A DNA stretch of 64,000 nt from Alphaproteobacteria bacterium (GTDB lineage Bacteria; Pseudomonadota; Alphaproteobacteria; Bin95), in the NCBI GenBank assembly GCA_965660545.1, contig CBFIAF010000004.1, positions 76,655-140,654 on the forward strand. Reading direction: 5' to 3'. The translations under genes and the position numbers were made by a program. Below are positions 1-52,729 of the stretch, one piece after another. The number at the start of each line of letters is the position of its first letter. Position 1 is the stretch's first letter. Under the pieces are notes generated by a model. The model was given only the letters and a program-made list of their open reading frames with translations, was not told the origin of the DNA and made no database searches.

Positions 1-476
1 TCGAAACCGGCGGCGGCGTCCTGAAAGCTTTGCCCTTGCTGGGGGCAGAGCCGTTCTATGCCGTCAATGCAGATGTTTGGTGGGCGGGATCACTTCCATC
101 CGGCCTAAAAGCACTTGCATCCTATTGGCGGCCACAAGCGATGGACGTGCTTTTGCTGCTACAAGCAACAGCGAAGATCGATGGCTATGACGGGCGTGGA
201 GATTTCTACTTAGACGGCCTTGGCCAGCTCACCCGGAAGCAGGACAGCGAAACCGCACCCTTCGTGTTTACCGGCGCACAAATTCTAAGCCCATCAGCGT
301 TTGCAGGCGTCCAGTCCGGCGCATTCTCCTTGAATAGAATTTATGATCAGGCGGCAGCAAACGGGCGACTGTTTGGTCTTTCCCACAGTGGCGGATGGGC
401 TGACATTGGCACACCGCAACGGCTAACCCGGGCCAGAAACGCTGCAGAGACGGCACGCGCACGCCAACTCCTATGA
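1..476 (+). CDS. Nucleotidyltransferase family protein (MurU-like sugar-1-phosphate nucleotidyltransferase), 5'-partial at window edge
   Basis: The frame is open back to nt 1. The translation (ETGGGVLKALPLLGAEPFYAVNADVWW...) resembles MurNAc-1-P uridylyltransferase-type nucleotidyltransferases. Its stop overlaps the addB start (ATGA). The murU-addB-addA-trxA order is conserved in alphaproteobacteria. Confidence 0.6.
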   Translation, partial: ETGGGVLKALPLLGAEPFYAVNADVWWAGSLPSGLKALASYWRPQAMDVLLLLQATAKIDGYDGRGDFYLDGLGQLTRKQDSETAPFVFTGAQILSPSAFAGVQSGAFSLNRIYDQAAANGRLFGLSHSGGWADIGTPQRLTRARNAAETARARQLL

Positions 477-3400: not shown

Positions 3401-3490
3401 AGCGAACCGCGCGCAGCCTTTAATGAGGCACCCCGATTTTCCAAATACCGAACGCTCGCCAGGCTCTCCAATGATGTGGAGGAGTCTTGA
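473..3490 (+). CDS. addB: Double-strand break repair protein AddB (alphaproteobacterial type, C-terminal PD-(D/E)XK nuclease)
   Basis: 1005 aa ORF with a C-terminal nuclease motif (GRADRIDASGDGTLAIVDYKTG). It lies directly upstream of the UvrD-like AddA gene and is translationally coupled to it (ATGA overlap at 3487-3490). Confidence 0.85.
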   Translation: MTDEDAVIGLSGIYTIPPGADFLGTLAKGLASHIPSASLGQTKIFLPTRRACRALTEAFLDGQDAARLLPAAYPLGDVDLDDLAFQSDIHASAAAERAIELQPALASTRRTLMLARLAQAKERSEHGADMPLPAALRLGRELGRFLDDLAIDRVNPDAVSQIDAGEYAAHWHRVVTFLEIVIKQWPDMLAELDRLDPTTRREALIDAQAEAWTRQPPTQPTLIAGSTGAQLGTRALMSALLDGPNGIVVLPGFENDVDDDGFRHIRESPGHPQHAMATALAALDFKPADVQTWAVDAPASPRANLIVEALRPARDAQKWRSIQPRQFTQANKNLQRVDAASQDQEARIAAIFLREQLQILALEKPYPKLALVTPDRGLARRVRAELRRWEIEADDSAGEPLGQTPLGAYLRLAARACRTGADAVDILSLLKHPLSAGGISRAEFRTNARALERTVWRDDRHQRQARTLADAATLLHELEKPELAAFAERAHDLIAPLIEQLTEGDALRPMLEAHIRIAEALAASDESEGAAALWQGDAGEAAAALLAETLDAADASPSLNGRDYPESFEALIEGAAVRNNQAAGSPIQIMGVLEARLAGFDAVVLGGLDEGVWPRPPAADPWFSRAMRREIGLTDPEKRLGLSAHDFAQLLHCPNVLLTRSLLRDDAPTKPSRWLVRLDAVVAADGACPKLTDGQERYRYLAAALDPIQDIAGSEPPNFCPPIKARPRRLSATEIDTLILDPYAIYAKRVLELYPLGDLDPAPSPADRGRIVHAAFESFLQKYPDHLPDDVLAAILEAGDEAFAEFADHAEAQAFWRPAFERSARWAAEREIAHREDIALAKAHAELRGEVVFQAPGGPFKLTARADRIDASGDGTLAIVDYKTGAPPTKKAIASADAPQLPLEAAIARHGAFKDGDGETLAALETSLLAIWQLAGREGGKVTAIDGEVAESAMDIAWEGFQRLIAGFDEADTPYLSEPRAAFNEAPRFSKYRTLARLSNDVEES

Positions 3491-6400: not shown

Positions 6401-6981
6401 CATCTAAGCTTGTGCCAGAAGCCGTGGCCGATCTATCGCCGGTACTCTCACCGTTGGAATGGGGCCAGAAATCAGAACGCGCAGCCACGCGCTTTGGGCG
6501 CGGATTGATGATCCACCGCTTGCTGGAACGCCTGCCTGCCCTGCCCCGTGAGGCCCGGTCAAAAGCCGCTACACGCTACCTGGCCCGCGCAGACGGCGTC
6601 ACGCTAGCTGAGCAACAAGATATCCTTAAAGCCGTAATGCGGGTTGTAGAGGACCCAGAATTCGCAAATATCTTCGACGAACACGCACTGGCCGAAACGC
6701 CAATAGGCGGCACCCTCGCTGGCCAACCCGTCGCTGGCATTATTGACAGATTACTCGTGACAGAAGACGAAGTGCTGATTGTTGATTACAAGAGTAACCG
6801 CCCGCCGCCGACAACAGCGGAAGCCACACCGATTCCCTATCTGGCGCAAATGGCAGTGTATCGGGATTTGGCGGCGCAAGCGTTTCCTGGCCGAACAATC
6901 AAGGCGGCACTTCTCTGGACGGAGGCCCCAAGGCTTGTCATTCTACCGGATAGTCTAATCGCGCCACACAGTTTAGCGTAG
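3487..6981 (+). CDS. addA: Double-strand break repair helicase AddA (UvrD/REP helicase with C-terminal nuclease)
   Basis: 1164 aa ORF with Walker A (GSGKTKVLTDR), UvrD-family helicase motifs (VDEAQDTN) and a C-terminal PD-(D/E)XK-like motif (DRLLVTEDEVLIVDYKSN). Confidence 0.9.
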   Translation: MMADNPTERATRSQRIVSTPNLSAWVSASAGSGKTKVLTDRALRLMLAGSQPDRILCLTFTKAAAAEMANRIINRLSLWAAASQDALREDLSGMGAFNPTPEMLARAAKLFATVVDAPGGLKVQTVHSFCQSALERFPVEAGVPPGFAALDERAAADLLREARDGMLQDILAGEASDPRLTPALERLVQRGTADAFDELLKALLAERARIDQLGGADAATQAAWRLLEVDAESAAPEFAMRSIVTLDQGMETKLRRLMTAWLDGGKTDKSKGDTLDAWLASDTDGRCAMTPPLFSAFFTGGGESTPFASAATKGVLKANTWFEEVHADCLDWITNARERLWAAECAADTEAAIRLASAIGERYARAKRVAAKLDFDDLILKTRDLLEADGGAGWALYKLDAGIDHILVDEAQDTNSEQWAIVHALAEEFYRDGADMGRTLFAVGDPKQSIFSFQRADPKEFAKSRARFKTLVTGAEQEFEDRSLDVSFRSVPAVLCAVDATFAALAAYQGLAPEAEPPAHISARPGLPGRVELWPVLEKPETADMPDRWTPLKAYPDANVSVEAGLAALVANKIEELLNDPNERLPPGPSAPEGRRIRASDIMVVLQTRSTFGDLLTRALKTKDIATAGVDRMRLTRQLAIRDLIALGAIAILPEDDLSLAVLLKSPLIGLCEKELFELAHSRREQPLWRRLQERAAEPGSAYAEAWAFVSEALRRADFEPPFDFYQWALGAMRGRARMISAMGEAIRDPLDAFMSLALAYSDDNAPSMQGFLGWVERDQVEIKRQLEEAASGVRIMTTHAAKGLQAPVVFLPQTTRGEANYTLGLFWTDTEQGIAPILGPTRKAIDPTAINALREARAQRQEEERRRLLYVAMTRAEDRLYVCGWETNLKAEKMALTWHGLVETGIRSLEDHVEEGVYFSEAPMLVLDDQGDGTSVEGVQTDFSPDIRHILPGWWQQPFAAPPRAPEIKAPSKLVPEAVADLSPVLSPLEWGQKSERAATRFGRGLMIHRLLERLPALPREARSKAATRYLARADGVTLAEQQDILKAVMRVVEDPEFANIFDEHALAETPIGGTLAGQPVAGIIDRLLVTEDEVLIVDYKSNRPPPTTAEATPIPYLAQMAVYRDLAAQAFPGRTIKAALLWTEAPRLVILPDSLIAPHSLA

Positions 6982-10065: not shown

Positions 10066-13000
10066 ATGATGGCTTTGAATGCAGGCAATGCCGCCGCTAT
10101 CGACAAGCACACATCCTTAACTGGCCGCGCCGCGCGACTTATCGTTGATGCCCGTTGGCTCTGGTTAGTGCTTACAGTCGCACTGGTGGCCTTATCGATC
10201 GCCCGGATTGACCAAATTTGGCCCCTAGACCCAAATGCCCGAGTCTTCTTCGCCCCGGAAAATCCAGACAGGCAGGCCCTCGACCGATTTGAAGAAACTT
10301 TCGCCAAAGATGACAATCTGATGATTGTGGTCGTACCCAAGGGCGGCGATATTTTTGACCCAAAGGTGCTTGGCGTCATCGGTGAGATCACGGAGAAGGC
10401 TTGGCGTCTGCCGTTCGTGCGCCGGGTCGATTCCATCACAAATTTCCAGCACACATATTCCGAAGCCGACGAGATGATCGTCCGAGATCTGGTTGAGAAC
10501 TCAGCAACCGTGACAGCAGAGCAAGCCGCAGAGGCCAAACGCTTAGCGTTAGAGCGGGTAGAAATCGTTGACCTGTTCGTGCCGAAAGCAGCGGATGTGA
10601 CCCAGGTTTCCGTCCGCTTCACCCTGCCCCAGAAGGATACTTTGACAGAGGTCCCGTCCATCGTGGCTGCGGCCATGGAATTACGGACAGAGCTTGAAGC
10701 GGCTTATCCGTTCATCGACATCCGCTTCAGCGGCGCTGTTATGATCAACAACCAGTTCTCAGTCTCTGGTCAGGCGGACAGTAAGAACCTGCTGGGGCCA
10801 ATGTTCATCGTGATCCTGCTGATTGTTGGCCTGGCGCTTCGTTCCATCTTTGGCACATTTAGCGTGCTGATCGTAATCACGCTTTCTGCCCTCGGCGGAC
10901 TTGGTGCCCTTGGCTGGATGGGCTTACCGCTGAACTCCGTCACGATCCTGGCACCGCTCTACATCCTGACGCTTGCAGTGGCGTCCGCAGTACACATCCT
11001 CTCATCTTGCCGACAAACCATGGTGGAAACAGCAGACCGCAAGCAATGGGCGATCCGCGCATTAGAAGACCATATGGGCGCCATCGTGATCGCCTGCGTA
11101 ACGACATCTATCGGCTTCTTCTGCCTGAACTTCTCGATCTCACCGCCATTCCGCCAACTGGGCAATGTCGTCGGCATCGGCGTATTGGCGGCGATGGTCT
11201 ACACCCTGACCCTCCTGCCAACACTAGTGACGCTGCTGCCGATCGGTCGCCGCACATCGCAAGCTGGCGCCAGCAAGCTCATGGACAAGTTGGCCGAGTT
11301 CGTCATCGCCGAGCGCAAATTACTGCTGCCAGGAACAGCGCTGCTGGTGGCAGGGCTCGCAGTGGGTGTCAGCCAACTACGCCTGGAAGACGATTTCTTG
11401 CGTTATTTCGATGAACGCTATGAGTTCCGCCAAGATGCTGATTTCATTGAGGAACGGCTAACCGGAGTAAGCGGTATCGAATTCCCCCTACCCTCCGGCG
11501 AGGCCCAAGGCGTCAATGATCCGGCGTTCCTGAAAGAAGTGACTGCATTCACGGATTGGCTACGCAATCAGCCGGAAGTGACTTATGTCAGCAGCCTGAC
11601 AGACACCATTAAACGCCTGAACATGAACATGCATGGAGATGACCCGACCTTCTTCAGAATCCCCGATAACCGTGAGGAAGCGAGCCAATATCTGTTCCTG
11701 TACGAATTGAGCATCGGCTACGGCATGGACCTGACGGACCGCATCGATGTGGACCGCCGCACCATGCGTGTCACAGTGCTAATGGCGAACGTGACAACCG
11801 CCGCCATGCGCGGCCTGACCCTGCGCGCCGGCGACTGGTTGAACGGCAATGCCCCCGTCATCCAATCCGGTTGGAAATCAGAAAACCCGTTAGTCAGGCT
11901 CGTCACGCCAACTGGCGTCGTTCACGTGTTTAACCTGATCTCATACCGTGATGTGCGGGCGATGCTGTCTGGCACGCTCATCGCGCTGATCCTGATATCT
12001 GGCATTATCACCATCGCGCTCTGGAATTTGAAAATTGGGCTGGTGAGCCTGATCCCAAATATTATCCCCGCCGTTATGGCGTTTGGCATATGGGGCTATG
12101 GGGTCGGCGCAGTAACGCTTGCAATTGCGGTTGTGTTAGCCGCGACGCTGGGGATTGTGGTGGACGACACAGTCCACTTCCTCTCCAAATATACCGAAGC
12201 CCGAAAGCGTGGGGCGAGCGCGGAGGATGGTGTGCGTTTCGCGTTCAAATCCGTCGGCATGGCGATGTTCGTGACAACGCTTGGCTTGGTTGGCGGGTTC
12301 GCAGTGCTGGCCCAATCGGGCTTCGCTGTGAACGGCGACATGGCGAAATTGACCGCGATTACGATAACTTTAGCGCTCGTCGCTGACTTCCTCCTCCTGC
12401 CTTCCTTGCTGATTTGGCTCGAAACCCGGAGAAAACCGATGATCAAACCTGTTGCTGCTGCAACATTGGCGAGCCTACTGGCCGGCGCTGCGTTCACACC
12501 ACGCCCCGCCAGCGCTGAAACACCTGAAGAAAAAGGCCTAGCCATCGCCCTCGAAGCAGACCAGCGCGACCTCGGCTTCGGCGATTTCACGGCAAATGGA
12601 GAAATGGTACTGCGCGACAAGCAAGGCCGCGAGAGCCGCCGTGTATTCGACAACATGACCCGTGAACGGCCCGAGACCAATGTCGGCGACTTCGGCGTCA
12701 TCGTCTTCCGTAAGCCAAGGGACATTCGAGGGACGACACTGCTGACCCACGCCAAAGTTGAACCGAATGACGACGACCAGTGGCTTTATCTCCCTGCCGT
12801 AAAGCGCGTGAAGCGAATTTCATCCTCCAACCGCACCGGAAAGTTCGTATCGTCAGAATTCTCCTACGAGGATCTCGGCAGCCAGGAAGTGGCAGACTAC
12901 GATTACAAATGGCTCCGCGATGAACCTTGCCCAACGGACCCAGCCATGACCTGTCATGTCTCGGAGAGTGTTCCGAAGAACAAGAAATCTGGATACTCCA

Positions 13001-13260
13001 AGCGCATCACTTGGACGGACACTGCTAAATTTCGCCTGCAGGCCATCCATTTTTTCAACCGGCGCGGCGACTTGGAAAAGCAGCTGACCTTCACGGGCTA
13101 CCAGCAGTATCTCGGTAAATACTGGCGCGCTGGAACGATGCGAATGGAGAACAAGCAGACCGGCAAATCGACCGACCTCTTGTGGACAAACTACAAGTTC
13201 GGCAATGGCTTAAGTGAGGCTGACTTTGACGCCAATCGCCTGAAACGCCTGGCGCGGTAA
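10066..13260 (+). CDS. MMPL/RND-superfamily membrane transporter fused in-frame to a C-terminal LolA-like (outer-membrane lipoprotein-sorting-protein/DUF1329-like) periplasmic domain
   Basis: 1064 aa. The first roughly 785 residues carry two 6-TM bundles typical of MMPL/RND (SSD-like) transporters. Residues about 786-1064 begin with a signal-peptide-like segment (MIKPVAAATLASLLAGAAFTPRPASA) preceded by GGAGAAAA, and resemble LolA-like periplasmic proteins usually encoded as a separate gene next to MMPL transporters. Confidence 0.7.
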   Translation: MMALNAGNAAAIDKHTSLTGRAARLIVDARWLWLVLTVALVALSIARIDQIWPLDPNARVFFAPENPDRQALDRFEETFAKDDNLMIVVVPKGGDIFDPKVLGVIGEITEKAWRLPFVRRVDSITNFQHTYSEADEMIVRDLVENSATVTAEQAAEAKRLALERVEIVDLFVPKAADVTQVSVRFTLPQKDTLTEVPSIVAAAMELRTELEAAYPFIDIRFSGAVMINNQFSVSGQADSKNLLGPMFIVILLIVGLALRSIFGTFSVLIVITLSALGGLGALGWMGLPLNSVTILAPLYILTLAVASAVHILSSCRQTMVETADRKQWAIRALEDHMGAIVIACVTTSIGFFCLNFSISPPFRQLGNVVGIGVLAAMVYTLTLLPTLVTLLPIGRRTSQAGASKLMDKLAEFVIAERKLLLPGTALLVAGLAVGVSQLRLEDDFLRYFDERYEFRQDADFIEERLTGVSGIEFPLPSGEAQGVNDPAFLKEVTAFTDWLRNQPEVTYVSSLTDTIKRLNMNMHGDDPTFFRIPDNREEASQYLFLYELSIGYGMDLTDRIDVDRRTMRVTVLMANVTTAAMRGLTLRAGDWLNGNAPVIQSGWKSENPLVRLVTPTGVVHVFNLISYRDVRAMLSGTLIALILISGIITIALWNLKIGLVSLIPNIIPAVMAFGIWGYGVGAVTLAIAVVLAATLGIVVDDTVHFLSKYTEARKRGASAEDGVRFAFKSVGMAMFVTTLGLVGGFAVLAQSGFAVNGDMAKLTAITITLALVADFLLLPSLLIWLETRRKPMIKPVAAATLASLLAGAAFTPRPASAETPEEKGLAIALEADQRDLGFGDFTANGEMVLRDKQGRESRRVFDNMTRERPETNVGDFGVIVFRKPRDIRGTTLLTHAKVEPNDDDQWLYLPAVKRVKRISSSNRTGKFVSSEFSYEDLGSQEVADYDYKWLRDEPCPTDPAMTCHVSESVPKNKKSGYSKRITWTDTAKFRLQAIHFFNRRGDLEKQLTFTGYQQYLGKYWRAGTMRMENKQTGKSTDLLWTNYKFGNGLSEADFDANRLKRLAR

Positions 13261-42413: not shown

Positions 42414-43334
42414 ATGGTAAAGTCTATAATACAATTTATATTTGCAGCCGCCCTCGCGCTGACCGCGGTTATCGCGCAGCCCGCTACTGCGGCAAATCTT
42501 GGCCCCAAAACCTGCCAAGAATGCCATCGTGCTGAGTACGAGGTGTGGAAAGGCTCCGCGCACTTCAAGGCCTATCGTGGCGCGCACAAGCACAAAAATG
42601 CAAAAGCGATTGCGGCGGCTTCCGGCACTGGCAAATCCATGCGGAAAAACAAAACCTGCATGACTTGTCATTACACGGTAATTGGCAGCAAGGCGAGAGC
42701 GAAAGCTGGCCCGTCCTGCGAGAGCTGCCACGGCGGCGCTTCCAAGTGGGTAAAAATCCATAATGACCTTGGCGCTGGCGTGAAATCATCTGCGGATGAG
42801 TCTGCTGCCCACAAAAAGTCACGCCTGGCTGCAGCACAAAAAGCCGGCATGATCCATTCATCAATGGTTTACGACATCGCTGAGAACTGTAATTCCTGCC
42901 ACACCATGCAGAAGATTGACCCTGCAATGGCCGGTAAGCTGATCGATGCAGGCCATCCAATCAATGGTAGTTATGAGCTGGTGAAGTATAGCCAGGGTCA
43001 AGTTCGCCATCGCTTCTATCCGCCGAACATCACCGAGAACCAGAAAATGAACAAGGCGGAACTATCCCGCATGTTCTTGACCGGCCACGCTGCTGGTCTC
43101 GTCTATGCGACGAAGGTTCTGGAAAGTGCTGATAATGCCAAGTACAAAGCAGCTATGGAACAACGCGTCGTTGATGCAAAGAAAGCAATCGGCGCTGCTA
43201 AGGGTTCTATACCGGCTGCGGGCGCACTTTTGTCCTCACCGACGGAAGCAAACGCCAGGAAGTTCGTCGCGGCGTTGCAGGGCAAGGACCTGTCCGGTGC
43301 TGTCGGCGGCATGTTGCCCTCTGAGTACAAATAG
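42414..43334 (+). CDS. Periplasmic tetraheme cytochrome c (cytochrome c554-like CxxCH...W..S.H type)
   Basis: Signal peptide (MVKSIIQFIFAAALALTAVIAQPATAA). Four CxxCH motifs (CQECH, CMTCH, CESCH, CNSCH). First gene of the 7-gene operon. Confidence 0.85.
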   Translation: MVKSIIQFIFAAALALTAVIAQPATAANLGPKTCQECHRAEYEVWKGSAHFKAYRGAHKHKNAKAIAAASGTGKSMRKNKTCMTCHYTVIGSKARAKAGPSCESCHGGASKWVKIHNDLGAGVKSSADESAAHKKSRLAAAQKAGMIHSSMVYDIAENCNSCHTMQKIDPAMAGKLIDAGHPINGSYELVKYSQGQVRHRFYPPNITENQKMNKAELSRMFLTGHAAGLVYATKVLESADNAKYKAAMEQRVVDAKKAIGAAKGSIPAAGALLSSPTEANARKFVAALQGKDLSGAVGGMLPSEYK

Positions 43335-43458
43335 GGCGATACTATTCGCGAATCCTGAGGCGGTAATTAATGGATGTGTGCTGGGGTGGGCATGCCTTCA
43401 TTGATACTAGCCAAAGGCCCGCGGTTTTCCGCATCACGCGCTCCAGGGGGATGGCGCT

Positions 43459-45081
43459 TTGGCCTTAGCGACAAGATTAGCGCGTCCGCAACGTTGGGAC
43501 CGTCCGTTCGATCCAGGTATGACTGCGGCAGATTTGCAACACCTAAAACTTGATCCGGTTGTCGCCGCAATTGATGCAGACGCGTTCCCAGGGACTATTC
43601 CACTTGACGGCATTCTAGCTAACGATTCGCGGGTCATTCGTTACAAAGCCGGTGAAATCGTCGTTCGCGAAGGCGATTACGGTAATTCCGCATTTCTTAT
43701 TATGTCCGGCGCTTGCGACGTTGTCGTAAATCCGCCGCTGACTGATGCTCAGCTTGGCCGTCAAACTGAAGCGCCAGCTAGCATTGCGCGCGCGATTTCA
43801 CAACTCTGGAAGCGCACTGTCGTGCCGGAAGTTCGTGACGTCAGCCGCTATGGCGATATCGCCGTCACAGAGACAGATCATCAGGCCGTTTTTCTGCAAG
43901 ATTATGGCATTGTGCTTGGCGGGCGCAGCTTGCCGCGCCTTGGCGCGCAGCAAATGTTTGGTGAGTTGGCCGCTCTGGGCCGTACCCCCCGCGCGGCAAG
44001 CGTCGTTTGTGTCGAAGACGCAGAGGTGCTTGAGATTCGCTGGCAGGGCCTGCGGGAGCTTCGTCGGTTTGATGCCGGCTGGCGCCGCCAGATCGACACC
44101 AACTACCGCGCCAATGCGCTGATCTCGCACCTGCAGGACACGCTGCTGTTCGATGGTCTGTCCGACGACGCGCTCCAATCCATCGCAGACGCGACATTGT
44201 TTGAAACTTATGGCTCCTTTGACTGGAGTTCTTCGTTCCAGCGCGCCGAAAGCGATGCGCGCCTGGATACAGAACCCGTCATTGCGCGTGAAGGCGAATA
44301 TCCAGATGGCCTCTTGCTTATCCGTGCAGGATTTGGCCGCGTTTCTGTGCGCCAAGGGGCAGCAGAACGCACACTGACTTACTTATCTGCTGGCGATCAT
44401 TTCGGCTTGAGCGAGCTTTATGCTGGCTGCAAGGGCGGTGGATCACCGATGGAAGCAACACTCCGCGCGGTCGGTTACGTGGACGCCCTACGTGTGCCAA
44501 CTAAGGTACTCGAAGAGCATGTCTTCCCGCGCATGAACACAGCGCCGGATAGCTTCCTACAGTTTGCAGCCCGCCCCCTTGCAGATGATTCACTGCAGGA
44601 ATGGGCAATCGAAGAGCGTTTCATCAACGGCACCATGGCGATGCTGATTGATTTGGATAGATGCGTGCGCTGTGACGATTGCGTGCGGGCCTGTGCGTCC
44701 ACCCACGGCGGCAACCCTCGTTTTGTCCGCCACGGCAAGATCAATGACCATTGGATGGTCGCCAATGCCTGTATGCATTGCTCTGACCCTGTCTGTATGA
44801 TCGGCTGCCCAACGGGCGCTATTCACCGGACGCAGGCGGGCGGCTCTGTTGTCATCAATGACGACAGCTGCATCGGGTGCGGTACATGCGCCAATTCCTG
44901 CCCTTATAATAATATCCGCCTCGTCGAAATTCGGGACCTGTCTGGAGCCCCGGTTCAGGACGAAGCAACCGGGCAGCCCATTCGTAAGGCGACAAAATGT
45001 GATCTTTGCGCAGGTATTCCTGGTGGCCCCGCCTGTGAGCGCGCCTGCCCGCACGGCGCTCTCCAGCGCGTTGATTTTTAG
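43459..45081 (+). CDS. Cytoplasmic protein with two cyclic-nucleotide-binding (CAP-effector-like) domains fused to a four-cluster [4Fe-4S] ferredoxin module (HybA/NrfC/PsrB-like)
   Basis: N-terminal two-thirds carry two cNMP-binding-like domains (FLIMSGACDVV; GELAALGRTPRAASVVCVEDAEVLEI). C-terminal 150 aa has four Cys clusters: CVRCDDCVRAC, CMHCSDPVCMIGCP, CIGCGTCANSCP, CDLCAGIPGGPACERACP. No signal/TAT peptide and no HTH. Confidence 0.75.
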   Translation: MALATRLARPQRWDRPFDPGMTAADLQHLKLDPVVAAIDADAFPGTIPLDGILANDSRVIRYKAGEIVVREGDYGNSAFLIMSGACDVVVNPPLTDAQLGRQTEAPASIARAISQLWKRTVVPEVRDVSRYGDIAVTETDHQAVFLQDYGIVLGGRSLPRLGAQQMFGELAALGRTPRAASVVCVEDAEVLEIRWQGLRELRRFDAGWRRQIDTNYRANALISHLQDTLLFDGLSDDALQSIADATLFETYGSFDWSSSFQRAESDARLDTEPVIAREGEYPDGLLLIRAGFGRVSVRQGAAERTLTYLSAGDHFGLSELYAGCKGGGSPMEATLRAVGYVDALRVPTKVLEEHVFPRMNTAPDSFLQFAARPLADDSLQEWAIEERFINGTMAMLIDLDRCVRCDDCVRACASTHGGNPRFVRHGKINDHWMVANACMHCSDPVCMIGCPTGAIHRTQAGGSVVINDDSCIGCGTCANSCPYNNIRLVEIRDLSGAPVQDEATGQPIRKATKCDLCAGIPGGPACERACPHGALQRVDF

Positions 45082-45092
45082 GGGCACCAAGA

Positions 45093-45923
45093 ATGATCGT
45101 CCGAACAGTCAACAGCGTCCGGCCCTTCGGCTACACCCTGGCCGCCATCGGTGCCGCTGTGATCGCCAGTCTCGCTTATTATTCGCATCAGGAACACCTG
45201 AAGCTCAGTGACGCCACCTTCGTCACGGGTTGGGTATTGCTGACAGCCATGGTCTCCCTAGCGCTTTTCAACATCCGCAAGCGTCTTTCCATGATGTCAA
45301 TGGGTAGGGCAGCTTATTGGCTTGCGCTGCACGTTGTCGTTGGCCTATTCGCTGTCGGAATGTTCATTGTCCACACAGGTGGCATGTGGGCCACAGGCTT
45401 CTATGAGCAAGTGATGGCTGGATTGTTTTGGGCGACGGCCCTGTCAGGCGTCTTCGGCTGGCTATATCAGCGCGCGATGCCAAGGCGCCTTACACGCATT
45501 GGCTATGAAGTCGTTTATGAACGAATCCCGGCTGAAATTGCCGCCCTTCGCGAGGAAGCTGAAGAAGCCACCCTTGAAGGCGTAGGTGCTAGCGGCGAAC
45601 CAACCCTCGGCCGCTTCTATTCAGAAACCATGCAGGACTTCTTCCGTCGGCCGCGCTTTATGTTAAGCCACCTCTTTGGTGCAGGTGCAGCCCAACAGTG
45701 GGTTGACCTCCGGTTCCGCACGGTGCGCGGGCTAGTTGGCTCACAAGAAGAACCCGCCCTTGCCCGACTTGAAGCTGCCGCAAGACGCAAACTCTCTATA
45801 GACGCTCATTACGCCATTCAACGCTCCTTGAAGCTTTGGGTGGCGGTCCACGTCGTGCTATCTGCAGCGATGTTAACGCTTGCAGTATGGCACCTCATCC
45901 TGGTGCATGTGTACGCCCGATGA
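45093..45923 (+). CDS. Polytopic inner-membrane protein with conserved intramembrane histidines (candidate b-type heme/quinone-interacting subunit)
   Basis: 276 aa with about 5 predicted TM helices. His pairs sit inside helices (HVVVGLFAVGMFIVH; VHVVLSAAMLTLAVWHLILVH), with a roughly 120 aa soluble loop. The gene is 11 nt after the FeS gene and its stop overlaps the next start (ATGA). Confidence 0.55.
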   Translation: MIVRTVNSVRPFGYTLAAIGAAVIASLAYYSHQEHLKLSDATFVTGWVLLTAMVSLALFNIRKRLSMMSMGRAAYWLALHVVVGLFAVGMFIVHTGGMWATGFYEQVMAGLFWATALSGVFGWLYQRAMPRRLTRIGYEVVYERIPAEIAALREEAEEATLEGVGASGEPTLGRFYSETMQDFFRRPRFMLSHLFGAGAAQQWVDLRFRTVRGLVGSQEEPALARLEAAARRKLSIDAHYAIQRSLKLWVAVHVVLSAAMLTLAVWHLILVHVYAR

Positions 45924-48028
45924 CTGAAGACAAAAATCGCTTCGCCCACGATCGATCACCCTATGAGCGCCCGAATTTTCCTTTCCGGTGCGGCAGGGAG
46001 GCAGCCTTTGGCAAACCGTGCCCACGCGGCCCGAGCGCTGGCGGTAATTGCCAGGGGATCTCGGACTGCACGCCATTCCGGACACGCAAGATCGTAACAA
46101 ACACTGAAACCGGTGAAGAAACAGAGACCCAGCGTTGGGAATGCCGCCGCCCGCAACATGCTGGCGGCCCCTGTGCTGAAGGTCCACGGCCAGACGGCAC
46201 ATGCTCTTGCATCCATCCGCCATGTGCACCTAAGCTGACTATCCGGCGTCAGCGCGGCCGCTGGGCAATGCTTGCAGTTGCCGCAATGGTAGCCATGGTA
46301 TTGGCTTTTGTCGGCGCTGCTGGCGGTATCATTGGCCCTAAACCAGATGCAAACGGCATTCTTAGTCATGTTGGCTGGCCGAGTTCAGTCAACCCTGGTC
46401 CGCTTTCCGGCAAGCATGAACAATTCACGGCCAAAGACGGCTGTATTTCATGCCATGTCGGCCATTCAGACACATTAACAGGCTGGGCTGGTGCAATATT
46501 CGAGCGCACCACTATTTCTGAGTCCTGCGTCTCGTGCCACAGCTTCGGAGAGAAACAAGCTAATTCCGACCCTAAAGCCCAATCGCCAATGGCATTCGCC
46601 GCCCATAACACGAAATTCCCGAACCGCACGAATGCCCCAACAGCATCGTGCACGGGCTGCCACACGGAACATAAAGGTGTGGGTGCATCGATCACGCCGA
46701 TGGATGATGGCCAGTGCTCTGCATGCCACACCACCAAGTTCGACAGTTTCTCCAAATCCCATCCGGCGTTTGGGACAAATTTCCCGCATGAAAGTGCACG
46801 AACCATCAAGTTTCAGCATGGCAAGCACCTAGAAACGCATTTTGTAGACCAGCGCTATATCGATAGAGCGCCAAAGAATGGCTGCATCTCCTGCCATACA
46901 GACCAAGTTGATGGGCGTTTGCTACCGGGCAGTTTTGAGAATGGCTGTGCCGCATGTCATGAACTTGCGATTAAAGAACAGGGAATGGTCGTCTTCGGCC
47001 TTCCTGAATTGAGTGACCCTGAATTGACTGCAGAAGCCCGTGACTCATGCGGCTTTCCTGTGCCACAGCGTGAGCCGGCCCGTGCGACCCTTGAAGCCCT
47101 GGCTGAGGCACTTCCGACAATGCAGGCGCTTGGTGAAAACGCCGAGTCTGGCAACCTGAATGGCGTCATGACTGCAGTTGAGGCCTTAAGTGAGGCCCAG
47201 ACCGCGATTGCCGAAGCGCGGGATGAGCTTGCAGAGGCTGTCGACATGTCAGAAGCCGTTTCCCTTGATTCGCTCTCCCCGATCGCAGCATTCCTTCTGG
47301 CTGTTCCGGCTGATGATGCAGATGAATATAGCGAAGCAGCAGCAGCCTTCCTGATTGCCGCTGCCGCCGACGGGCAGGTCCCGCTTGCCGAAGCAATCGA
47401 CGCTAAGGGTGGTGATGCAACCGCGCTGCTGGCAGGCCTTTCACCCGAGTTAGTGACGGAAGTTACTTGCGCTTGGGCCGCAAACACGGAATATGAACCT
47501 AAGCAAGACCCTGAACCGGGCGCTGGCTGGGCTGCGCAAGAGCTGCAAGTGTCTTATCTGCCAACAGGCCATGCGGATGCTGTGACCAAGGGATGGATTG
47601 CACTTGGTCTAGCAAATCGTGGCAGTCAAGATGAAGGTGTCGAAGCTTTTGCTGACCTCGTGCTCAGTGCGGGCGACGGGCCGGGTCGTTGCTTTAAGTG
47701 TCACGTCGCACCAGCGGCAGATGCTGAAAAACAAGTCGTACAATGGGCTATTCCACGCGCAGATGTTCGCCCATTCACAACTTTCAATCATGATCCGCAC
47801 TTAAATGTACTAGATCAGGGAGCCGGATGTGCGACATGCCATAGTCAGTTGGAGCCGGGCGCAACCTTGGCTGATGGGCAATCTCGCCCAGGGCCGCATG
47901 CAAACGACTTCAAGCCGATCGATCAAGCAACTTGCAAAGATTGTCACCGCCCGGGCGCGGTTCGGCAGGATTGCGCACTTTGCCACCGCTACCATAGCAA
48001 TCCATCCATCCGGAAACGGACGTTGTGA
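45920..48028 (+). CDS. Membrane-anchored multiheme cytochrome c (10 CxxCH) with Cys-rich N-terminal region
   Basis: Ten CxxCH motifs arranged 6+4, split by a roughly 200 aa Ala/Glu-rich low-complexity linker. One hydrophobic helix (WAMLAVAAMVAMVLAFVGAAGG) sits after a roughly 110 aa N-terminal region containing 9 Cys (C-x10-C-x8-C-x5-C ... C-x9-C-x7-C-x-C-x4-C). The start at 45920 is inferred from the ATGA overlap. Confidence 0.75.
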   Translation: MTEDKNRFAHDRSPYERPNFPFRCGREAAFGKPCPRGPSAGGNCQGISDCTPFRTRKIVTNTETGEETETQRWECRRPQHAGGPCAEGPRPDGTCSCIHPPCAPKLTIRRQRGRWAMLAVAAMVAMVLAFVGAAGGIIGPKPDANGILSHVGWPSSVNPGPLSGKHEQFTAKDGCISCHVGHSDTLTGWAGAIFERTTISESCVSCHSFGEKQANSDPKAQSPMAFAAHNTKFPNRTNAPTASCTGCHTEHKGVGASITPMDDGQCSACHTTKFDSFSKSHPAFGTNFPHESARTIKFQHGKHLETHFVDQRYIDRAPKNGCISCHTDQVDGRLLPGSFENGCAACHELAIKEQGMVVFGLPELSDPELTAEARDSCGFPVPQREPARATLEALAEALPTMQALGENAESGNLNGVMTAVEALSEAQTAIAEARDELAEAVDMSEAVSLDSLSPIAAFLLAVPADDADEYSEAAAAFLIAAAADGQVPLAEAIDAKGGDATALLAGLSPELVTEVTCAWAANTEYEPKQDPEPGAGWAAQELQVSYLPTGHADAVTKGWIALGLANRGSQDEGVEAFADLVLSAGDGPGRCFKCHVAPAADAEKQVVQWAIPRADVRPFTTFNHDPHLNVLDQGAGCATCHSQLEPGATLADGQSRPGPHANDFKPIDQATCKDCHRPGAVRQDCALCHRYHSNPSIRKRTL

Positions 48029-48036
48029 GGATTAAG

Positions 48037-49809
48037 ATGATGGAAGAGAGAAAGATGGAATTTGGAATCCGCCCCTTGGGGCGCCGCCTTCTAATTGCTG
48101 GCGCTTTCGCCGCTGCGGTATTTGGCATGCCAATTACAGCAGTAGCAGCCGAAAAAGAAGATCCGCATGCGGATCTTATGGCCGAGGAAAGCTACCCAAC
48201 AGCCGCCCAATGTGGTGCCTGTCACACCCAGGTCTATCGCGAATGGGCGTCGTCTAACCACGCATACGCATCGATTTCGCCGATGTTCCACAAGTTCGAG
48301 CAGAAGATTAATGATCTCTCGAGCGGCACCATCCGAGGCTTCTGCGTACGGTGCCATCAACAGATCGGCACGCAGCTCAATGAACGCCGCGACCTCCCGC
48401 TTTGGGAACGCAATCAGATTTCACGCGAAGGCATTTCCTGCGTGACGTGCCACCGCGTCCGTGAAGAATTCGGCAAGGTCAACGGCGAACGCCGGATCAT
48501 CCCAGGCCAGGTCTACACGCCTGTCAGCGGTGTTGGCGATGGCAAAAAGCTAAAGGAAATCATTGAGAACCGTAGCGAATATCGTGTTGCGGTTAGCGAA
48601 AAGGAACGCGGGGCCCAGATTCACACGGGCGTTTACAAGTTCCCACAGATTTCTAAGTCAGAATTCTGTGTGTCTTGTCACCAGGTCGCTGTGAACCCAG
48701 GCATCAAGCTTGAAGTTGTTTGGGAGCAGTATAGAAACTCCCCAGCAGCCGCTAATGGCGTCACGTGTCAGGATTGCCATATGGGCAAAGTGCCAGGCCG
48801 GGCTGACGGTTATGCAACCGGGCCCGTCGCAATCGTTAATGGTGAAGAAATCAATCCGGACCGCAGGCACTCCAACCATGCCTTCTACGGCCCTGGCTAC
48901 CCAATTGCTCATCCTGGCATCTTCCCACACAACCCAGATGCAGCTGAAATTCCCATCGAAGACTGGCTGGAATTCGACTACCGCTCTAAGTGGGGCTCGG
49001 AAGAATTTGAAGAGAAAGTCGCCAACGGCGAGATTGATGAAGACAGCCTGCCAGACGCATGGTCCGATTCAGTTGACCGTGAGGAAGCTTGGGAAATCAT
49101 CCAGGAGAACGTCGGACTTCTGGAAGAAAAACGCGACCTTCGCCGTCAAGTGATGGAAAATGGTTCTCGTCTTGATGGCCCGTTCTTCGCTAGCGCGCCA
49201 AAACAAGGGTCCTCCCTCAGCTTTGACATCAAACTGACCAACACAGATGACGGCCATAACCTGCCGTCTGGTTCTCTCGGTGCCCAGCCTGAAATCTGGC
49301 TGAATGTTGCTGTCGTATCGCCCAGCGGCAAGACAGTATGGGAATCTGGTTACGTTGATGGGAATGGCGATATGGCCGACATTCACTCCCTAGAGGTAAG
49401 AGCGGGCAAAATCGAATATGATGACCAGCTTTTCAACTTGCAAACCAAGTTTCTATTCACGAACGTTAAGGGGACTGAACGCGAATGGTATCTGCCAATA
49501 AATATCGATATCGATCAGCTTCCATTCATCCGCCCAGCAAACGTGCCGACGACTATCCTAAACCATGCGCCATTTATCCGCATGGAAGGTCGTTCGATTC
49601 CACCACTTGGGTTTCGCAACGCTAGCTACACCGTGCCGGCAGATGCGTTGACGGAAAAAGGTACTTACAAAATGGCCGTCCGACTGCGGAGCCGCGCCGA
49701 ACCGATCTACTTCATGCGGTTCGTCGATTCGACGCCGGAAATGGAAGAAGCCATGAACAGCTGGATGCTTGATTTCCATTCCTACACCGTGGAATTTGAA
49801 GTCAACTGA
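48037..49809 (+). CDS. Secreted pentaheme cytochrome c with large heme-free C-terminal domain
   Basis: Signal peptide. Five CxxCH (CGACH, CVRCH, CVTCH, CVSCH, CQDCH), all in the first roughly 280 aa. A roughly 300 aa C-terminal domain has no heme motif. GAGGA RBS before the ATG at 48037; the ORF track starts at a GTG at 48025 that overlaps the upstream stop. Confidence 0.8.
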   Translation: MMEERKMEFGIRPLGRRLLIAGAFAAAVFGMPITAVAAEKEDPHADLMAEESYPTAAQCGACHTQVYREWASSNHAYASISPMFHKFEQKINDLSSGTIRGFCVRCHQQIGTQLNERRDLPLWERNQISREGISCVTCHRVREEFGKVNGERRIIPGQVYTPVSGVGDGKKLKEIIENRSEYRVAVSEKERGAQIHTGVYKFPQISKSEFCVSCHQVAVNPGIKLEVVWEQYRNSPAAANGVTCQDCHMGKVPGRADGYATGPVAIVNGEEINPDRRHSNHAFYGPGYPIAHPGIFPHNPDAAEIPIEDWLEFDYRSKWGSEEFEEKVANGEIDEDSLPDAWSDSVDREEAWEIIQENVGLLEEKRDLRRQVMENGSRLDGPFFASAPKQGSSLSFDIKLTNTDDGHNLPSGSLGAQPEIWLNVAVVSPSGKTVWESGYVDGNGDMADIHSLEVRAGKIEYDDQLFNLQTKFLFTNVKGTEREWYLPINIDIDQLPFIRPANVPTTILNHAPFIRMEGRSIPPLGFRNASYTVPADALTEKGTYKMAVRLRSRAEPIYFMRFVDSTPEMEEAMNSWMLDFHSYTVEFEVN

Positions 49810-49888
49810 TTGGGGATCGCCTGCGGCGCGCCAAGCTGCCAAAGAGAACAGTTAAGGCGCGCCGCAGGCGAACGAGGAGAATAGAGGC

Positions 49889-51415
49889 GTGACACCAAGT
49901 TTTCTAAAGATGACCGGGCGCATTGCAATGGCGACAGCGGCTTCCGCACTGGCGATGATGGTCGCCACTGGCGGCCCTGCATATGCGGCGAGTGCCCATG
50001 ACGACAGTCCGCGCAAGATGGATCCTAATGTCAAACCGTCAGAGCATGACTCTGATGTCTTCAAGGCGGATCCAACATACGAAGAGAAAGTGTATGACGC
50101 TGAGCGCCAACTCGAAATCTATGGCGGCAAGCGCAACATTGAGGAGCCACGCCCGATCCTAGAAGTTGGTCGTCCGCAATATGTCGAAGGTCCTTTCGAC
50201 GAAGGCATTAATGTAATTGGCGAAAAGAACCTTTTGTTCCCATCGTTTTCAGTTTTTGGTGACGTCCGTACAGCGGTAGCCGCGAATGACGTTGGCGGTG
50301 ATGTTGTGTACGAGTTTGCCAACCGCCTGAACCTGGACCTCGACCTTAAGCTAACCGCCACAGAACGTGTTCACGGCTTCTTCCGCCCGATCGACGAGAA
50401 CGGTAAGTTCATAGGATATCGGACCGGCGATAAGAGGGGCAATAATGGCCGTGACGGTAAGCTCGATGCAAACCCAGAAACATTATTCTTTGAAGGTGAT
50501 ATTGGTGCCATATATGGCGGGTTAGCAGACGAATACACAACCTTTGACCTGCCAATCGCATTTGGTTTGACACCCTTCGTCATGCAGAATGGGCTTTGGG
50601 TTGATGAGGCCTTTGTTGGGGGCGGCATATCACTCGCTGCAATGAACAGTCGTACACTTGATATCACAAACATGGACATCACCTTCTTTGGTGGTTTCGA
50701 TGAAATCGATTCACCGGCATTCGTTGGCCAGGACGGTGTCCTAGATACAGACGACGTATCAATTTATGCCGTAGCCGCTTTCGTCGATTGGTTCGAAGGC
50801 TATTCTGAGTTCGGTATCGGCTATGTCGACGGAAGAGAGCAACTCAACGATATTGACTATTTCAACTTTACCGGTGCCTATACGTCACGGTATGGCGGCT
50901 GGCTCTCCAACTCCGTCAGGCTATTTGGCGCTGTGGGTCAAGATACAAACGGCCGTGCTAAAACGGCCGATGGCTTTGCCTTACTCATAGAAAACTCTTT
51001 GATCACGTCCAAGCCAGATGTCTTTGTTCCCTATTTCAATGGCTGGGTTGGTATCGATAAGCCGCAATCCCTCGCACGCAACAACGGCGGGCTATTGAAG
51101 AACACCGGCATCACGTTCGAGAACGACGGCATGACCTCTTTTCCGACGCTGGATGATACCGCACAAGACACATTCGGTGGTGCCATCGGCGTCAACTATC
51201 TGTTCAGTCTAGACCAGCAGCTCGTGGTTGAAGCGTCTACGGTTCAAAGACTTGATACTGCCTCACCTGCTCAGGGTGGTCAGTATGCTGTTGGCTTCCG
51301 CTATCAGATCCCAGTCACGAACCGGGTTATCCTGCGTACAGACGGTATCTACGGCATTCGGGAAAGCCAGGAAGACATTGGCGGCGTTCGCTTCGAGCTG
51401 CGCGTTAAATTCTAA
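49889..51415 (+). CDS. Outer-membrane beta-barrel protein (porin-like; candidate cytochrome conduit)
   Basis: Signal peptide (MTGRIAMATAASALAMMVATGGPAYAASA), alternating amphipathic beta-strand pattern, Gly/aromatic-rich, and a C-terminal ...RFELRVKF ending in Phe, the OMP sorting signature. Confidence 0.65.
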   Translation: MTPSFLKMTGRIAMATAASALAMMVATGGPAYAASAHDDSPRKMDPNVKPSEHDSDVFKADPTYEEKVYDAERQLEIYGGKRNIEEPRPILEVGRPQYVEGPFDEGINVIGEKNLLFPSFSVFGDVRTAVAANDVGGDVVYEFANRLNLDLDLKLTATERVHGFFRPIDENGKFIGYRTGDKRGNNGRDGKLDANPETLFFEGDIGAIYGGLADEYTTFDLPIAFGLTPFVMQNGLWVDEAFVGGGISLAAMNSRTLDITNMDITFFGGFDEIDSPAFVGQDGVLDTDDVSIYAVAAFVDWFEGYSEFGIGYVDGREQLNDIDYFNFTGAYTSRYGGWLSNSVRLFGAVGQDTNGRAKTADGFALLIENSLITSKPDVFVPYFNGWVGIDKPQSLARNNGGLLKNTGITFENDGMTSFPTLDDTAQDTFGGAIGVNYLFSLDQQLVVEASTVQRLDTASPAQGGQYAVGFRYQIPVTNRVILRTDGIYGIRESQEDIGGVRFELRVKF

Positions 51416-51463
51416 TCACGATCGTATTGCTAGCCAAAATGGCACCGAGATTGGGGAAGAACG

Positions 51464-52729
51464 ATGGATAATTTGGCGAACTATGTCGCCATAGGTGCAG
51501 CCGGGCTGCTGGGCCTTTACATTTTGTCTCTGCTGATGGGCTCGCTCCGTCAGCAGAGCCAAATGGCGCGGCATTATGAGGAACAATCACAGCTATTCCG
51601 CGCACGTGCGGAAGGCTTGCAGAGGATCCGTGCTGAAGAGATCGAGAAAACCCAAAACACCTGGGCAGGCCTTCGGAAATTCAAAGTTGCCCGTAAGATC
51701 AATGAGATCACAGATTGCCACTCCATCTACCTTGAACCTCATGACGGTCGGCCCCTACCGCCGTTTGAGCCAGGCCAGTTTCTAACGTTCAAGTTTGCTG
51801 TGCCCGATCAGCCTAGCGACGTAATACGTTGCTACTCCCTGTCAGACGCACCTGGCCGTGACTACTACAGGATTACCGTCAAGAAGGTGCCACCGCCCCG
51901 TGGCAAGCCTGAAATAGCACCTGGTGTGTCCTCCACCTTCGTAAATGAAGTCTTGAATGAAGGCGATATAATTGATGTACGTGCGCCCAATGGCGGCTTC
52001 TATCTGAAGCGTGAACATAAACGTCCAGTCGTCCTAATCGGTGGCGGCGTTGGCATCACACCAGTGCTCAGCATGCTGAACTACATTGTGGAGCATGAGC
52101 CGCAGCGGGAAACATGGTTCTTCTTTGGGGCGCCCAATAAAGCCGGCCATATTATGAAGGATCACCTAGCCCAAATTGCTGCGGAAAATCCTAATATCCG
52201 CATGAACATTTGCTACAGCGACCCATCAGATGACGATGTGTTTGGGGAAGATTACGACCATCACGCCCGCGTTTCCGTAGAGCTGTTCAAGAAAGTCCTG
52301 CCTTCTAACAATTTCGAATATTACTTCTGCGGCCCACCGCCAATGATGAATGCGCTTGATGCGGACCTCAAAGCTTGGGGCGTACCAGAAGCCGATATTC
52401 ACTCTGAAGGCTTTGGCCCTGCTTCAGTTAAGAAGCCCAAACCACCTGCTGTAGAAGGTGCTGCAGAATTAGCATCTGTATCGGTAACGTTTGCTAAATC
52501 TGGCAAGACATTGGATTGGACGCCTGCTGCTGGAACAATTCTTGATTTGGCGGAAGCAAACGGTGTTGATGTTGCTTCGGGTTGCCGGGCCGGCAGCTGT
52601 GGTACTTGCCTCACCGCCGTTATAGAAGGCGATGTGGATTACGCAACGCCGCCAGACGCTCCGATCGAAAATGGCTCTTGCCTCGCGTGTGTCGGCACCC
52701 CGAAAGGGCCAATCAAGATAAACGCCTAA
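51464..52729 (+). CDS. Membrane-anchored FNR-family flavoprotein reductase with C-terminal plant-type [2Fe-2S] ferredoxin domain
   Basis: N-terminal TM helix (VAIGAAGLLGLYILSLLMGS), FAD motif RCYSLSD, NAD(P) motif GGGVGITP, C-terminal CRAGSCGTCL...CLACV 2Fe-2S motif. Last gene of the operon. Confidence 0.75.
   Translation: MDNLANYVAIGAAGLLGLYILSLLMGSLRQQSQMARHYEEQSQLFRARAEGLQRIRAEEIEKTQNTWAGLRKFKVARKINEITDCHSIYLEPHDGRPLPPFEPGQFLTFKFAVPDQPSDVIRCYSLSDAPGRDYYRITVKKVPPPRGKPEIAPGVSSTFVNEVLNEGDIIDVRAPNGGFYLKREHKRPVVLIGGGVGITPVLSMLNYIVEHEPQRETWFFFGAPNKAGHIMKDHLAQIAAENPNIRMNICYSDPSDDDVFGEDYDHHARVSVELFKKVLPSNNFEYYFCGPPPMMNALDADLKAWGVPEADIHSEGFGPASVKKPKPPAVEGAAELASVSVTFAKSGKTLDWTPAAGTILDLAEANGVDVASGCRAGSCGTCLTAVIEGDVDYATPPDAPIENGSCLACVGTPKGPIKINA

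Follow-up and report, generated by a model that had tools for sequence, protein, structure and literature searches.

The closest described counterpart of the gene analyzed here belongs to the ptdABCDEFG operon, which was named in oxygen-deficient-zone Alphaproteobacteria (UBA11136 and others) in a 2024 preprint (bioRxiv 10.1101/2023.11.21.568154). According to this source, the operon involves a pentahaem protein (PtdA), a porin (PtdB), an FAD/NAD(P) oxidoreductase (PtdC), a tetrahaem protein (PtdD), a cyclic nucleotide (cNMP)-binding Fe-S protein (PtdE), a transmembrane protein (PtdF) and a decahaem protein (PtdG). PtdE was credited there with "two 4Fe-4S clusters", no mechanism was proposed and the habitats covered were saline only. 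We analyzed a stretch of 64,000 nucleotides from an alphaproteobacterial assembly (GCA_965660545.1, contig CBFIAF010000004.1, positions 76,655 to 140,654 of the forward strand; hereafter the window) and focused on a gene that encodes two cyclic-nucleotide-binding (CNB) domains fused to a 4Fe-4S module. Judged by its described domain content and gene set, this gene is ptdE: it is placed between the genes for tetrahaem PtdD and transmembrane PtdF, and all seven genes of the preprint's operon are common to the window, where their order is D-E-F-G-A-B-C. PtdE is a member of an already named, biochemically uncharacterized family. Here, we propose, with a probability of about 55%, that PtdE is the cytoplasmic Fe-S relay of an envelope-spanning NAD(P)H conduit and that it responds to a cyclic nucleotide at its first CNB domain (CNB-A). 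What is new here is the four-cluster assignment, the invariant canonical cassette of CNB-A, the obligate and sometimes fused predicted di-haem partner, the universal NAD(P)H-flavoprotein partner and a habitat and taxonomic range much wider than that of the preprint.

Several known electron-transfer systems share parts of this arrangement. In formate dehydrogenase-N, a four-cluster Fe-S subunit (FdnH) is combined with a two-haem-b membrane subunit (FdnI), as in the PtdE/PtdF pair, but FdnH is periplasmic and dependent on twin-arginine translocation (Tat), and its electron chain runs in the direction opposite to that proposed for ptd. NADPH oxidases and ferric reductases (NOX/FRE) are functionally similar in that an extracytoplasmic acceptor receives electrons that come from cytoplasmic NAD(P)H and pass through FAD and a stacked pair of bis-His haems (Hx13H on two helices). 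However, the flavin domain of NOX is fused to the haem domain and there is no Fe-S relay. The MtrCAB/CymA system and the porin-cytochrome conduits of Geobacter employ multihaem cytochromes and a porin for trans-envelope transfer, as ptd does, but they are fed from the quinol pool via CymA, ImcH or CbcL, whereas ptd has a cytoplasmic NAD(P)H/Fe-S/haem-b entry and a CNB sensor; the similarity is weak and restricted to the domain level. Cytoplasmic four-cluster wires with 16 cysteines that connect catalytic partners are found in the hydrogen-dependent CO2 reductase (HDCR) filament (HycB3/HycB4, 7qv7), in formate hydrogenlyase (FHL; HycB, 7z0s), in HydN and in the N-terminal domain of AegA. Unlike PtdE, these proteins lack CNB domains as well as di-haem membrane and multihaem cytochrome partners. 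By analogy, ptd appears to function like a split NOX/ferric reductase into which an Fe-S relay has been inserted, or like an FdnH/FdnI pair in reverse, and by sequence it is a member of neither. To our knowledge, allosteric control by a cyclic nucleotide that binds to one of the redox subunits has not been demonstrated for any electron-transfer chain. Beyond the ptd preprint, we found no further literature description of a cNMP-binding 4Fe-4S protein in a multihaem cluster. The porin-multihaem cytochrome cluster of Verrucomicrobia (He et al., 2017, PMC5615132) was considered as the same system and ruled out; its cytochrome is octahaem and its porin has at least 20 strands, and no ferredoxin or CNB protein is mentioned.

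Identity and distribution of PtdE

The coordinates of all features are given in Table 1. The ptdE reading frame starts with TTG, and a Shine-Dalgarno-like sequence (AGGGGGA) is located 7 nt 5' of this codon. The gene begins 124 nt after the stop of the tetrahaem gene (43334) and ends 11 nt ahead of the membrane-protein gene (start 45093). A first-pass annotation, which was made from the letters of the window, had placed the gene in a cytochrome conduit beside a membrane subunit, and the neighboring genes bear this out; its distance of 11 nt to the membrane subunit agrees with our measurement, but the 125 nt given for the other side is one too many. Close to the N-terminus, the peptide RPQRWDxPF is conserved in our alignment A1, which supports a start at or near 43459. 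By analogy with the regulatory subunit of protein kinase A (PKA-R), this peptide may have a docking or auto-inhibitory role, but this is speculative. When we scanned the sequence and read its N-terminus, we found no hydrophobic segment, transmembrane (TM) segment, signal peptide or twin-arginine motif. The domain content that had been read from the letters (two CNB domains and a four-cluster ferredoxin with 16 cysteines, without a signal peptide) was correct, as indicated by Pfam and by 16 invariant cysteines.

Pfam and NCBIfam matches did not reveal a helix-turn-helix (HTH), kinase, GGDEF or other output domain in PtdE. A Crp/Fnr-type transcription factor was ruled out, because there is no HTH in these matches and the C-terminus is a ferredoxin module. 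Similarly, an anti-phage effector of the Pycsar/CBASS type was ruled out. The PADLOC match to PycTIR (E 1.3e-8) spans only strands beta2-3 of a CNB domain (residues 53-91), and neither an effector domain in PtdE nor a cyclase in the window was found.

The first-pass annotation considered the protein an unusual fusion, and this view has to be abandoned in the light of its distribution and of its earlier description as PtdE (bioRxiv 10.1101/2023.11.21.568154). A word-indexed search retrieved more than 4,800 PtdE homologues, and of the best 120 of them 118 were 500-570 aa long and all 120 had PF00027 and Fer4. When 1.84 billion 50%-identity representatives were searched exhaustively with HMMER, 544 clusters were obtained at E <= 1e-30, and a scan with one genome per species detected the architecture in at least 552 species genomes. 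The taxa of this species scan include Alpha- and Gammaproteobacteria, Verrucomicrobiota, Planctomycetota, Elusimicrobia, SAR324 and Zetaproteobacteria, and Hwanghaeella grinnelliae (Gri0909) and Ca. Uabimicrobium amorphum are cultured hosts among the species listed. With a marine alphaproteobacterial metagenome-assembled genome (MAG), L001, the window shares about 97% identity, and homologues in marine Rhodospirillaceae MAGs are 54-58% identical. The ptd loci that we found also include those of freshwater, groundwater and soil Verrucomicrobiota, Planctomycetota and Elusimicrobia. For the counts of gene presence given below, the seven window proteins were searched by tblastn against 83 loci, of which 43 with full 10-kb flanks are called fully flanked.

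The tandem cyclic-nucleotide-binding domains

PtdE matched cNMP_binding (PF00027) in Pfam with E 2.1e-24 and 85.7 bits (gathering cutoff 27.5) in three stretches. The best of these (residues 274-353) corresponds to the second domain, CNB-B, and the match of CNB-A is split by an insertion. When we compared CNB-A with the PDB by phmmer, strands beta2-3 (residues 53-92) and the cassette (residues 157-190) aligned to CNB domains of PKA-R and of the cGMP-dependent protein kinase (PKG). In canonical CNB domains, beta3 and the cassette are about 10-15 residues apart, compared with the 55-60 aa inserted in CNB-A. This insertion is specific for the family and carries conserved GRQ, QLW, PEVRD..RY and FLQD motifs in alignment A1.

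An AlphaFold2 (AF2) model of PtdE was used solely for matching the tandem-CNB fold. Its mean predicted local distance difference test (pLDDT) score was 58.7, with 70-90 for the CNB domains and less than 50 for the Fe-S module and the insertion. The top matches of this model in Foldseek were tandem-CNB structures of PKA-R and PKG (E 1e-16 to 1e-12), which also have two consecutive CNB folds. Identity to these kinase proteins is 13-18% and the TM-scores are low, because the domain arrangement and the insertion differ. Moreover, the output of PtdE is an Fe-S module, whereas the module of PKA-R/PKG acts on kinase inhibition.

The phosphate-binding cassette of CNB-A, FGELAALGRTPRAAS, matches the pattern FGELALxxxxPRAAT and aligns with FGELALMYNSPRAATV of Bcy1 and FGERALLYDEPRSATI of PKG. 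Here, we found that G168, E169, R175, R178 and T/S181 (pattern G-E...R...P-R-x-A-T/S) are kept in all 83 loci. Among the 50%-identity representatives, the conservation of this cassette was about 85-99% (Gly in 128/129, Glu in 111/129, Arg in 112/131). At position 179, directly after the Arg of the cassette, 72 of the 83 loci have Thr or Ser, a PKG-like R-T-A-T arrangement; PtdE of the window and its close relatives have Ala, as in the PKA-like R-A-A-S. According to the classical PKA/PKG rule, the residue at this place bears on the preference for cGMP or cAMP, and by analogy this preference may differ within the family.

CNB-B has a different character. Its cassette (FGLSEL...x14...LRAVGY) is degenerate and elongated, with Gly where the canonical cassette has Thr/Ser, and R336 is variable (Arg in 59, Thr in 16 and Ser in 5 of the 83 loci; Arg in 100 of 145 representatives). 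Judged by its sequence, CNB-B keeps the fold without a canonical cassette and is probably not a canonical binding site. The possibility that both pockets are intact, which was to be checked according to the first-pass annotation, is not borne out for this domain, whereas the cassette of CNB-A is canonical.

Some variants carry additional parts. P0191 has two N-terminal FHA domains (E 7e-33) and P0311 one FHA domain between CNB-A and CNB-B. These additions, as predicted from sequence, underline the signaling character of the N-terminal half of PtdE. Five relatives (P0235, P0239, P0247, P0273, P0279) are extended at the N-terminus by about 350 aa that lack an annotation, and P0290 is also among the variants with extra regulatory parts.

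The CNB domains might be pseudo-receptors. The Fe-S wire would then be the same, but the CNB domains would be only a structural scaffold or a docking site (of PtdC, PtdF or the PtdG N-terminal domain), or would bind a ligand other than a cNMP, and there would be no nucleotide gating. The degenerate CNB-B, the large conserved insertion in CNB-A and the lack of a linked cyclase in 82 of the 83 loci are in line with this possibility, and so is the fact that many bacterial CNB folds, such as those of CooA, CprK and FNR, do not bind cNMPs. However, CNB folds of this kind normally lose the G-E...R-x-A-T/S cassette, which is kept here in all 83 loci; these come from Proteobacteria, Verrucomicrobiota, Planctomycetota, Elusimicrobia and SAR324 and are 44-97% identical. 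Conservation across loci as diverse as these indicates selection on the contacts to phosphate and ribose of a nucleotide, and we consider pseudo-receptors a doubtful explanation, although one to be taken seriously.

The iron-sulfur module and its membrane partner

The cysteines of the ferredoxin module are arranged in four groups: C402/405/408/412 (CxxCxxCxxxC), C438/441/446/450-P, C471/474/477/481-P and C514/517/526/530-P. All 16 are invariant in alignment A1 and in the 83 species loci, and at least 99% of the 150 50%-identity representatives covering these positions have them as well. Several Fer4 families of Pfam were matched, among them Fer4_11 at residues 432-535. As ligands for four clusters are present in the sequence, whereas the preprint states two (bioRxiv 10.1101/2023.11.21.568154), that number looks like an under-count.

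The best PDB matches of the module in phmmer were HycB3 of the HDCR filament (7qv7_A, E 4.6e-17) and HycB of FHL (7z0s_B), and all 16 cysteines of PtdE pair one-to-one with cysteines of these two proteins. The periplasmic proteins NrfC, PsrB and FdnH scored lower. In NCBIfam, AegA, HydN and HybA were the top matches, but no equivalog cutoff was reached by any of the families matched (AegA, DmsB, HydN, HybA, NrfC, DsrO and others), the best scores being 39-60 bits compared with cutoffs of 200-1003 (for HydN, 53 bits versus 260). These sequence data suggest that PtdE is only a superfamily relative of the HycB/HydN-type polyferredoxins. The module had been labeled HybA/NrfC-like at first pass, and this assignment is not supported. 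Proteins of that type are periplasmic and carry a Tat signal, neither of which we found for PtdE, its closest solved relatives are cytoplasmic and the equivalog scores are far below the cutoffs. "HycB/HydN-like, cytoplasmic" appears to be the better label.

Directly 3' of ptdE and on the same strand, ptdF was found in all 79 loci with enough sequence. PtdF of the window carries the pairs H80-x13-H94 and H253-x13-H267 on two helices (2 x Hx13H), and these residues are invariant in 80 of 80 loci. Two Hx12-14H pairs on two TM helices are the His pattern of the ferric reductase domain (FRD)/NOX proteins and of di-haem cytochromes b. A loop of 110 aa (residues 130-240) is predicted to be cytoplasmic. 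PtdF did not match any Pfam family, including Ferric_reduct, Ni_hydr_CYTB and Cytochrom_B561. The structures similar to its AF2 model (pLDDT 89.6, predicted TM-score 0.80) are two-haem helical bundles and b-type cytochromes (CybB, HyaC, STEAP4 and b561).

Several independent clusters have PtdE and PtdF fused to a single chain, as in P0192 (843 aa), P0201 (856 aa) and P0189 (757 aa). For P0192 and P0201, BLASTP with PtdF of the window gave E-values of 1e-27 and 2e-31, and all four haem-ligand histidines are kept; P0189 is truncated ahead of the last helix. The fusions carry an Arg-rich linker before the first TM helix. Following the Rosetta-stone argument, these natural fusions suggest that PtdE and PtdF associate physically and that PtdE is located at the cytoplasmic face of the membrane.

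PtdF could also be a cytochrome b that reacts with quinones, as do FdnI, HyaC and CybB, and ptd would then be an NAD(P)H:quinone or quinol:cytochrome c oxidoreductase in which the relay role of PtdE is unchanged. We regard such a quinone-linked module as improbable. PtdF lacks a match to Ni_hydr_CYTB or related families, and two histidines per helix on two helices are the pattern of NOX/FRD and cytochrome b rather than of FdnI/HyaC. In addition, co-inheritance with membrane-anchored periplasmic multihaem proteins (PtdG in 43/43 fully flanked loci) suits direct hand-over of electrons.

The first-pass annotation had also offered a redox-sensing regulator. More broadly, PtdE could be a redox- or cNMP-sensing regulator with the clusters as sensor, and would not carry electrons. 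CNB domains are typical of regulators, and Fe-S clusters serve as sensors in FNR, NsrR and similar proteins. Against this, four strictly conserved clusters of the HycB type are typical of wires and not of sensors, there is no output domain, and the adjacency to di-haem PtdF is obligate and sometimes extends to one chain, so that a sensing regulator is very unlikely. Finally, an artefact in which frameshift or mis-assembly made one reading frame out of a CNB gene and a ferredoxin gene, for which a check had been advised at first pass, has practically no chance of being correct and was ruled out: the public data hold a 540-aa protein that is 98% identical to PtdE of the window, the single open reading frame (ORF) recurs in bulk (at least 552 species genomes, more than 4,800 protein clusters, 544 50%-identity representatives) and the linker between the domains is conserved, with R387, N390 and M395 invariant in alignment A1.

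The ptd gene cluster and a working model

The seven ptd genes of the window are contiguous (42414-52729) and tightly packed with two 4-nt overlaps; for instance, the ATG of ptdG overlaps the stop of ptdF (ATGA). Synteny is retained across the 83 loci. The Pfam matches of PtdC were NAD_binding_1 (E 1.3e-20), Fer2 (E 3.9e-12) and FAD_binding_6 (E 1.1e-3). Among the fully flanked loci, PtdC, PtdF and PtdG were each present in 43/43, PtdD in 41/43, and PtdA and PtdB in 24/43 each. The core of the conduit appears to consist of PtdC, PtdE, PtdF and PtdG; it is usually joined by PtdD and often by PtdA and PtdB as a cytochrome-porin pair. In the ptd operon, scans for promoters and terminators did not detect sites more frequently than in shuffled controls.

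TABLE 1 Coordinates of ptdE, its parts and the other ptd genes in the window
Feature	Position	Strand	Evidence
ptdE, coding sequence of a 540-aa CNB-CNB-4x[4Fe-4S] protein, predicted cytoplasmic	43459..45081	+	ORF, Pfam/NCBIfam, full-length homologues
N-terminal motif RPQRWDxPF (residues 9-17), conserved	43483..43509	+	alignment A1
CNB-A with insertion (about residues 45-205)	43591..44073	+	phmmer vs PDB, Foldseek
Family-specific insertion of about 55-60 aa in CNB-A (about residues 93-155)	43735..43923	+	alignment A1; AF2 pLDDT <50
CNB-A phosphate-binding cassette FGELAALGRTPRAAS (residues 167-181)	43957..44001	+	alignment to PKA/PKG cassettes
CNB-B with degenerate/elongated cassette (about residues 228-365)	44140..44553	+	Pfam, alignments
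Four-cluster [4Fe-4S] ferredoxin module (residues 392-540)	44632..45078	+	16 Cys aligned to HycB3/HycB
Cys groups of the ferredoxin module	44662-44694, 44770-44811, 44869-44904, 44998-45051	+	
ptdF, 276-aa 5-helix membrane protein, putative di-haem-b transmembrane wire	45093..45923	+	
ptdD, periplasmic tetrahaem cytochrome c (c554-like), signal peptide	42414..43334	+	4 CxxCH; Pfam Cytochrome_C554 E 2.9e-13
ptdG, predicted cytoplasmic 8-Cys N-terminal domain (1-115), one TM helix (116-134), periplasmic decahaem domain	45920..48028	+	10 CxxCH
ptdA, pentahaem cytochrome c	48025..49809	+	5 CxxCH; Pfam
ptdB, putative outer-membrane porin	49889..51415	+	signal peptide, C-terminal Phe, no Pfam match; porin in preprint
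ptdC, N-terminal TM anchor (residues 8-26), FNR-like FAD/NAD(P) module, C-terminal plant-type [2Fe-2S] ferredoxin	51464..52729	+	

The N-terminal domain of PtdG (45920-46264), which is predicted to be cytoplasmic, contains C24/34/44/50 and C75/85/95/102 in two Cx9Cx9Cx5-6C repeats without a Pfam name. These eight cysteines are near-invariant across 71 sequences and are followed by an Arg-rich stretch and the TM helix; the domain could bind a metal or an Fe-S cluster, or could dock PtdE. In a MAG labeled Omnitrophota (L082, 7121-15671), ptdE-F-G-C is located directly downstream of the pntAA/pntAB/pntB genes for an NAD(P) transhydrogenase, which hints at an NADPH link. The lone linked cyclase of the 83 loci is encoded on an alphaproteobacterial contig (L081, 21225-21659), two genes past ptdC, and combines CHASE2 with a class-III adenylate/guanylate cyclase. 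Ordinary functions were assigned to ten large ORFs in other parts of the window, none of which encodes a cyclase. Unrelated to ptd are a 1064-aa ORF with MMPL/Patched-SSD transporter domains and a C-terminal LolA_like/DUF1329 domain (10066-13260) and two large genes for a PD-(D/E)XK nuclease and a UvrD-helicase (473-6981), which are AddAB/RecBCD-like and represent an ordinary chromosomal context.

In the proposed conduit, NAD(P)H would reduce the FAD of membrane-anchored PtdC, from which electrons would move to the [2Fe-2S] cluster of the same protein. The four [4Fe-4S] clusters of PtdE would pass them on to the cytoplasmic-side haem b of PtdF, and the two bis-His haems of PtdF would bring them over the inner membrane to the c-haems of PtdG and PtdD and thence to PtdA/PtdB at the outer membrane. 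The cofactors predicted for such a chain are FAD, 2Fe-2S, 4 x 4Fe-4S, two haems b and up to 19 haems c. This wiring part of the model is well supported, as domain content, ligand residues and motifs, synteny, gene fusion and predicted topology all point to it; cofactor occupancy and the order in which the partners would dock are what we infer from these data. Outward electron flow is favored, because the potential of NAD(P)H is about -320 mV and the membrane potential assists outward electrons, whereas both oppose the inward direction.

A pathway of this kind would bypass energy conservation and drain reductant, and therefore there is a rationale for its tight post-translational control. A cyclic nucleotide binding at CNB-A would modulate docking or electron transfer of this NAD(P)H drain, and CNB-B would be a degenerate partner domain, which probably transmits or stabilizes the conformational change. 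Electron transfer gated by a cNMP is the most attractive reading, and the absolute conservation of the CNB-A cassette strengthens it. The more specific version, in which cAMP or cGMP at CNB-A directly switches a quinone-independent conduit from NAD(P)H to the extracellular space on or off, is tentative, and we would put it at somewhat less than even odds.

Several points weigh against the relay model with cNMP control. The cassette of CNB-B is degenerate and CNB-A carries an unexplained insertion of 55-60 aa. The class-III cyclase motif G[DE]xVNxA[SA]R was detected by motif scan near only one of the 83 loci and not in the window. As pLDDT is below 50 for the Fe-S module and the insertion, contacts between CNB domains and Fe-S module are not readable from the AF2 model. 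The direction of electron flow rests on thermodynamic reasoning only, and PtdF might exchange electrons with quinones. Moreover, the sole paper on the ptd operon calls its function completely unknown (bioRxiv 10.1101/2023.11.21.568154).

If the model is correct, ptd would be a widespread bacterial counterpart of NOX and ferric reductases, which exports electrons from NAD(P)H and bypasses the quinones, and hundreds of species of Proteobacteria, Verrucomicrobiota and Planctomycetota from aquatic habitats and soil would possess the conduit. Outward electrons would cost reducing power and membrane potential, which would make control by a second messenger physiologically sensible. PtdE would offer the first opportunity to test whether a cyclic nucleotide controls an Fe-S redox relay, and the handles that our analysis provides are E169 and R178, the partner PtdF, natural E-F fusions suited to structural work and cultured hosts. 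The hosts of ptd belong to abundant and poorly understood aquatic groups (oxygen-deficient-zone Alphaproteobacteria, Verrucomicrobiota, Planctomycetota), and the role of ptd there, be it iron or humic reduction or N-oxide chemistry, could bear on biogeochemical models.

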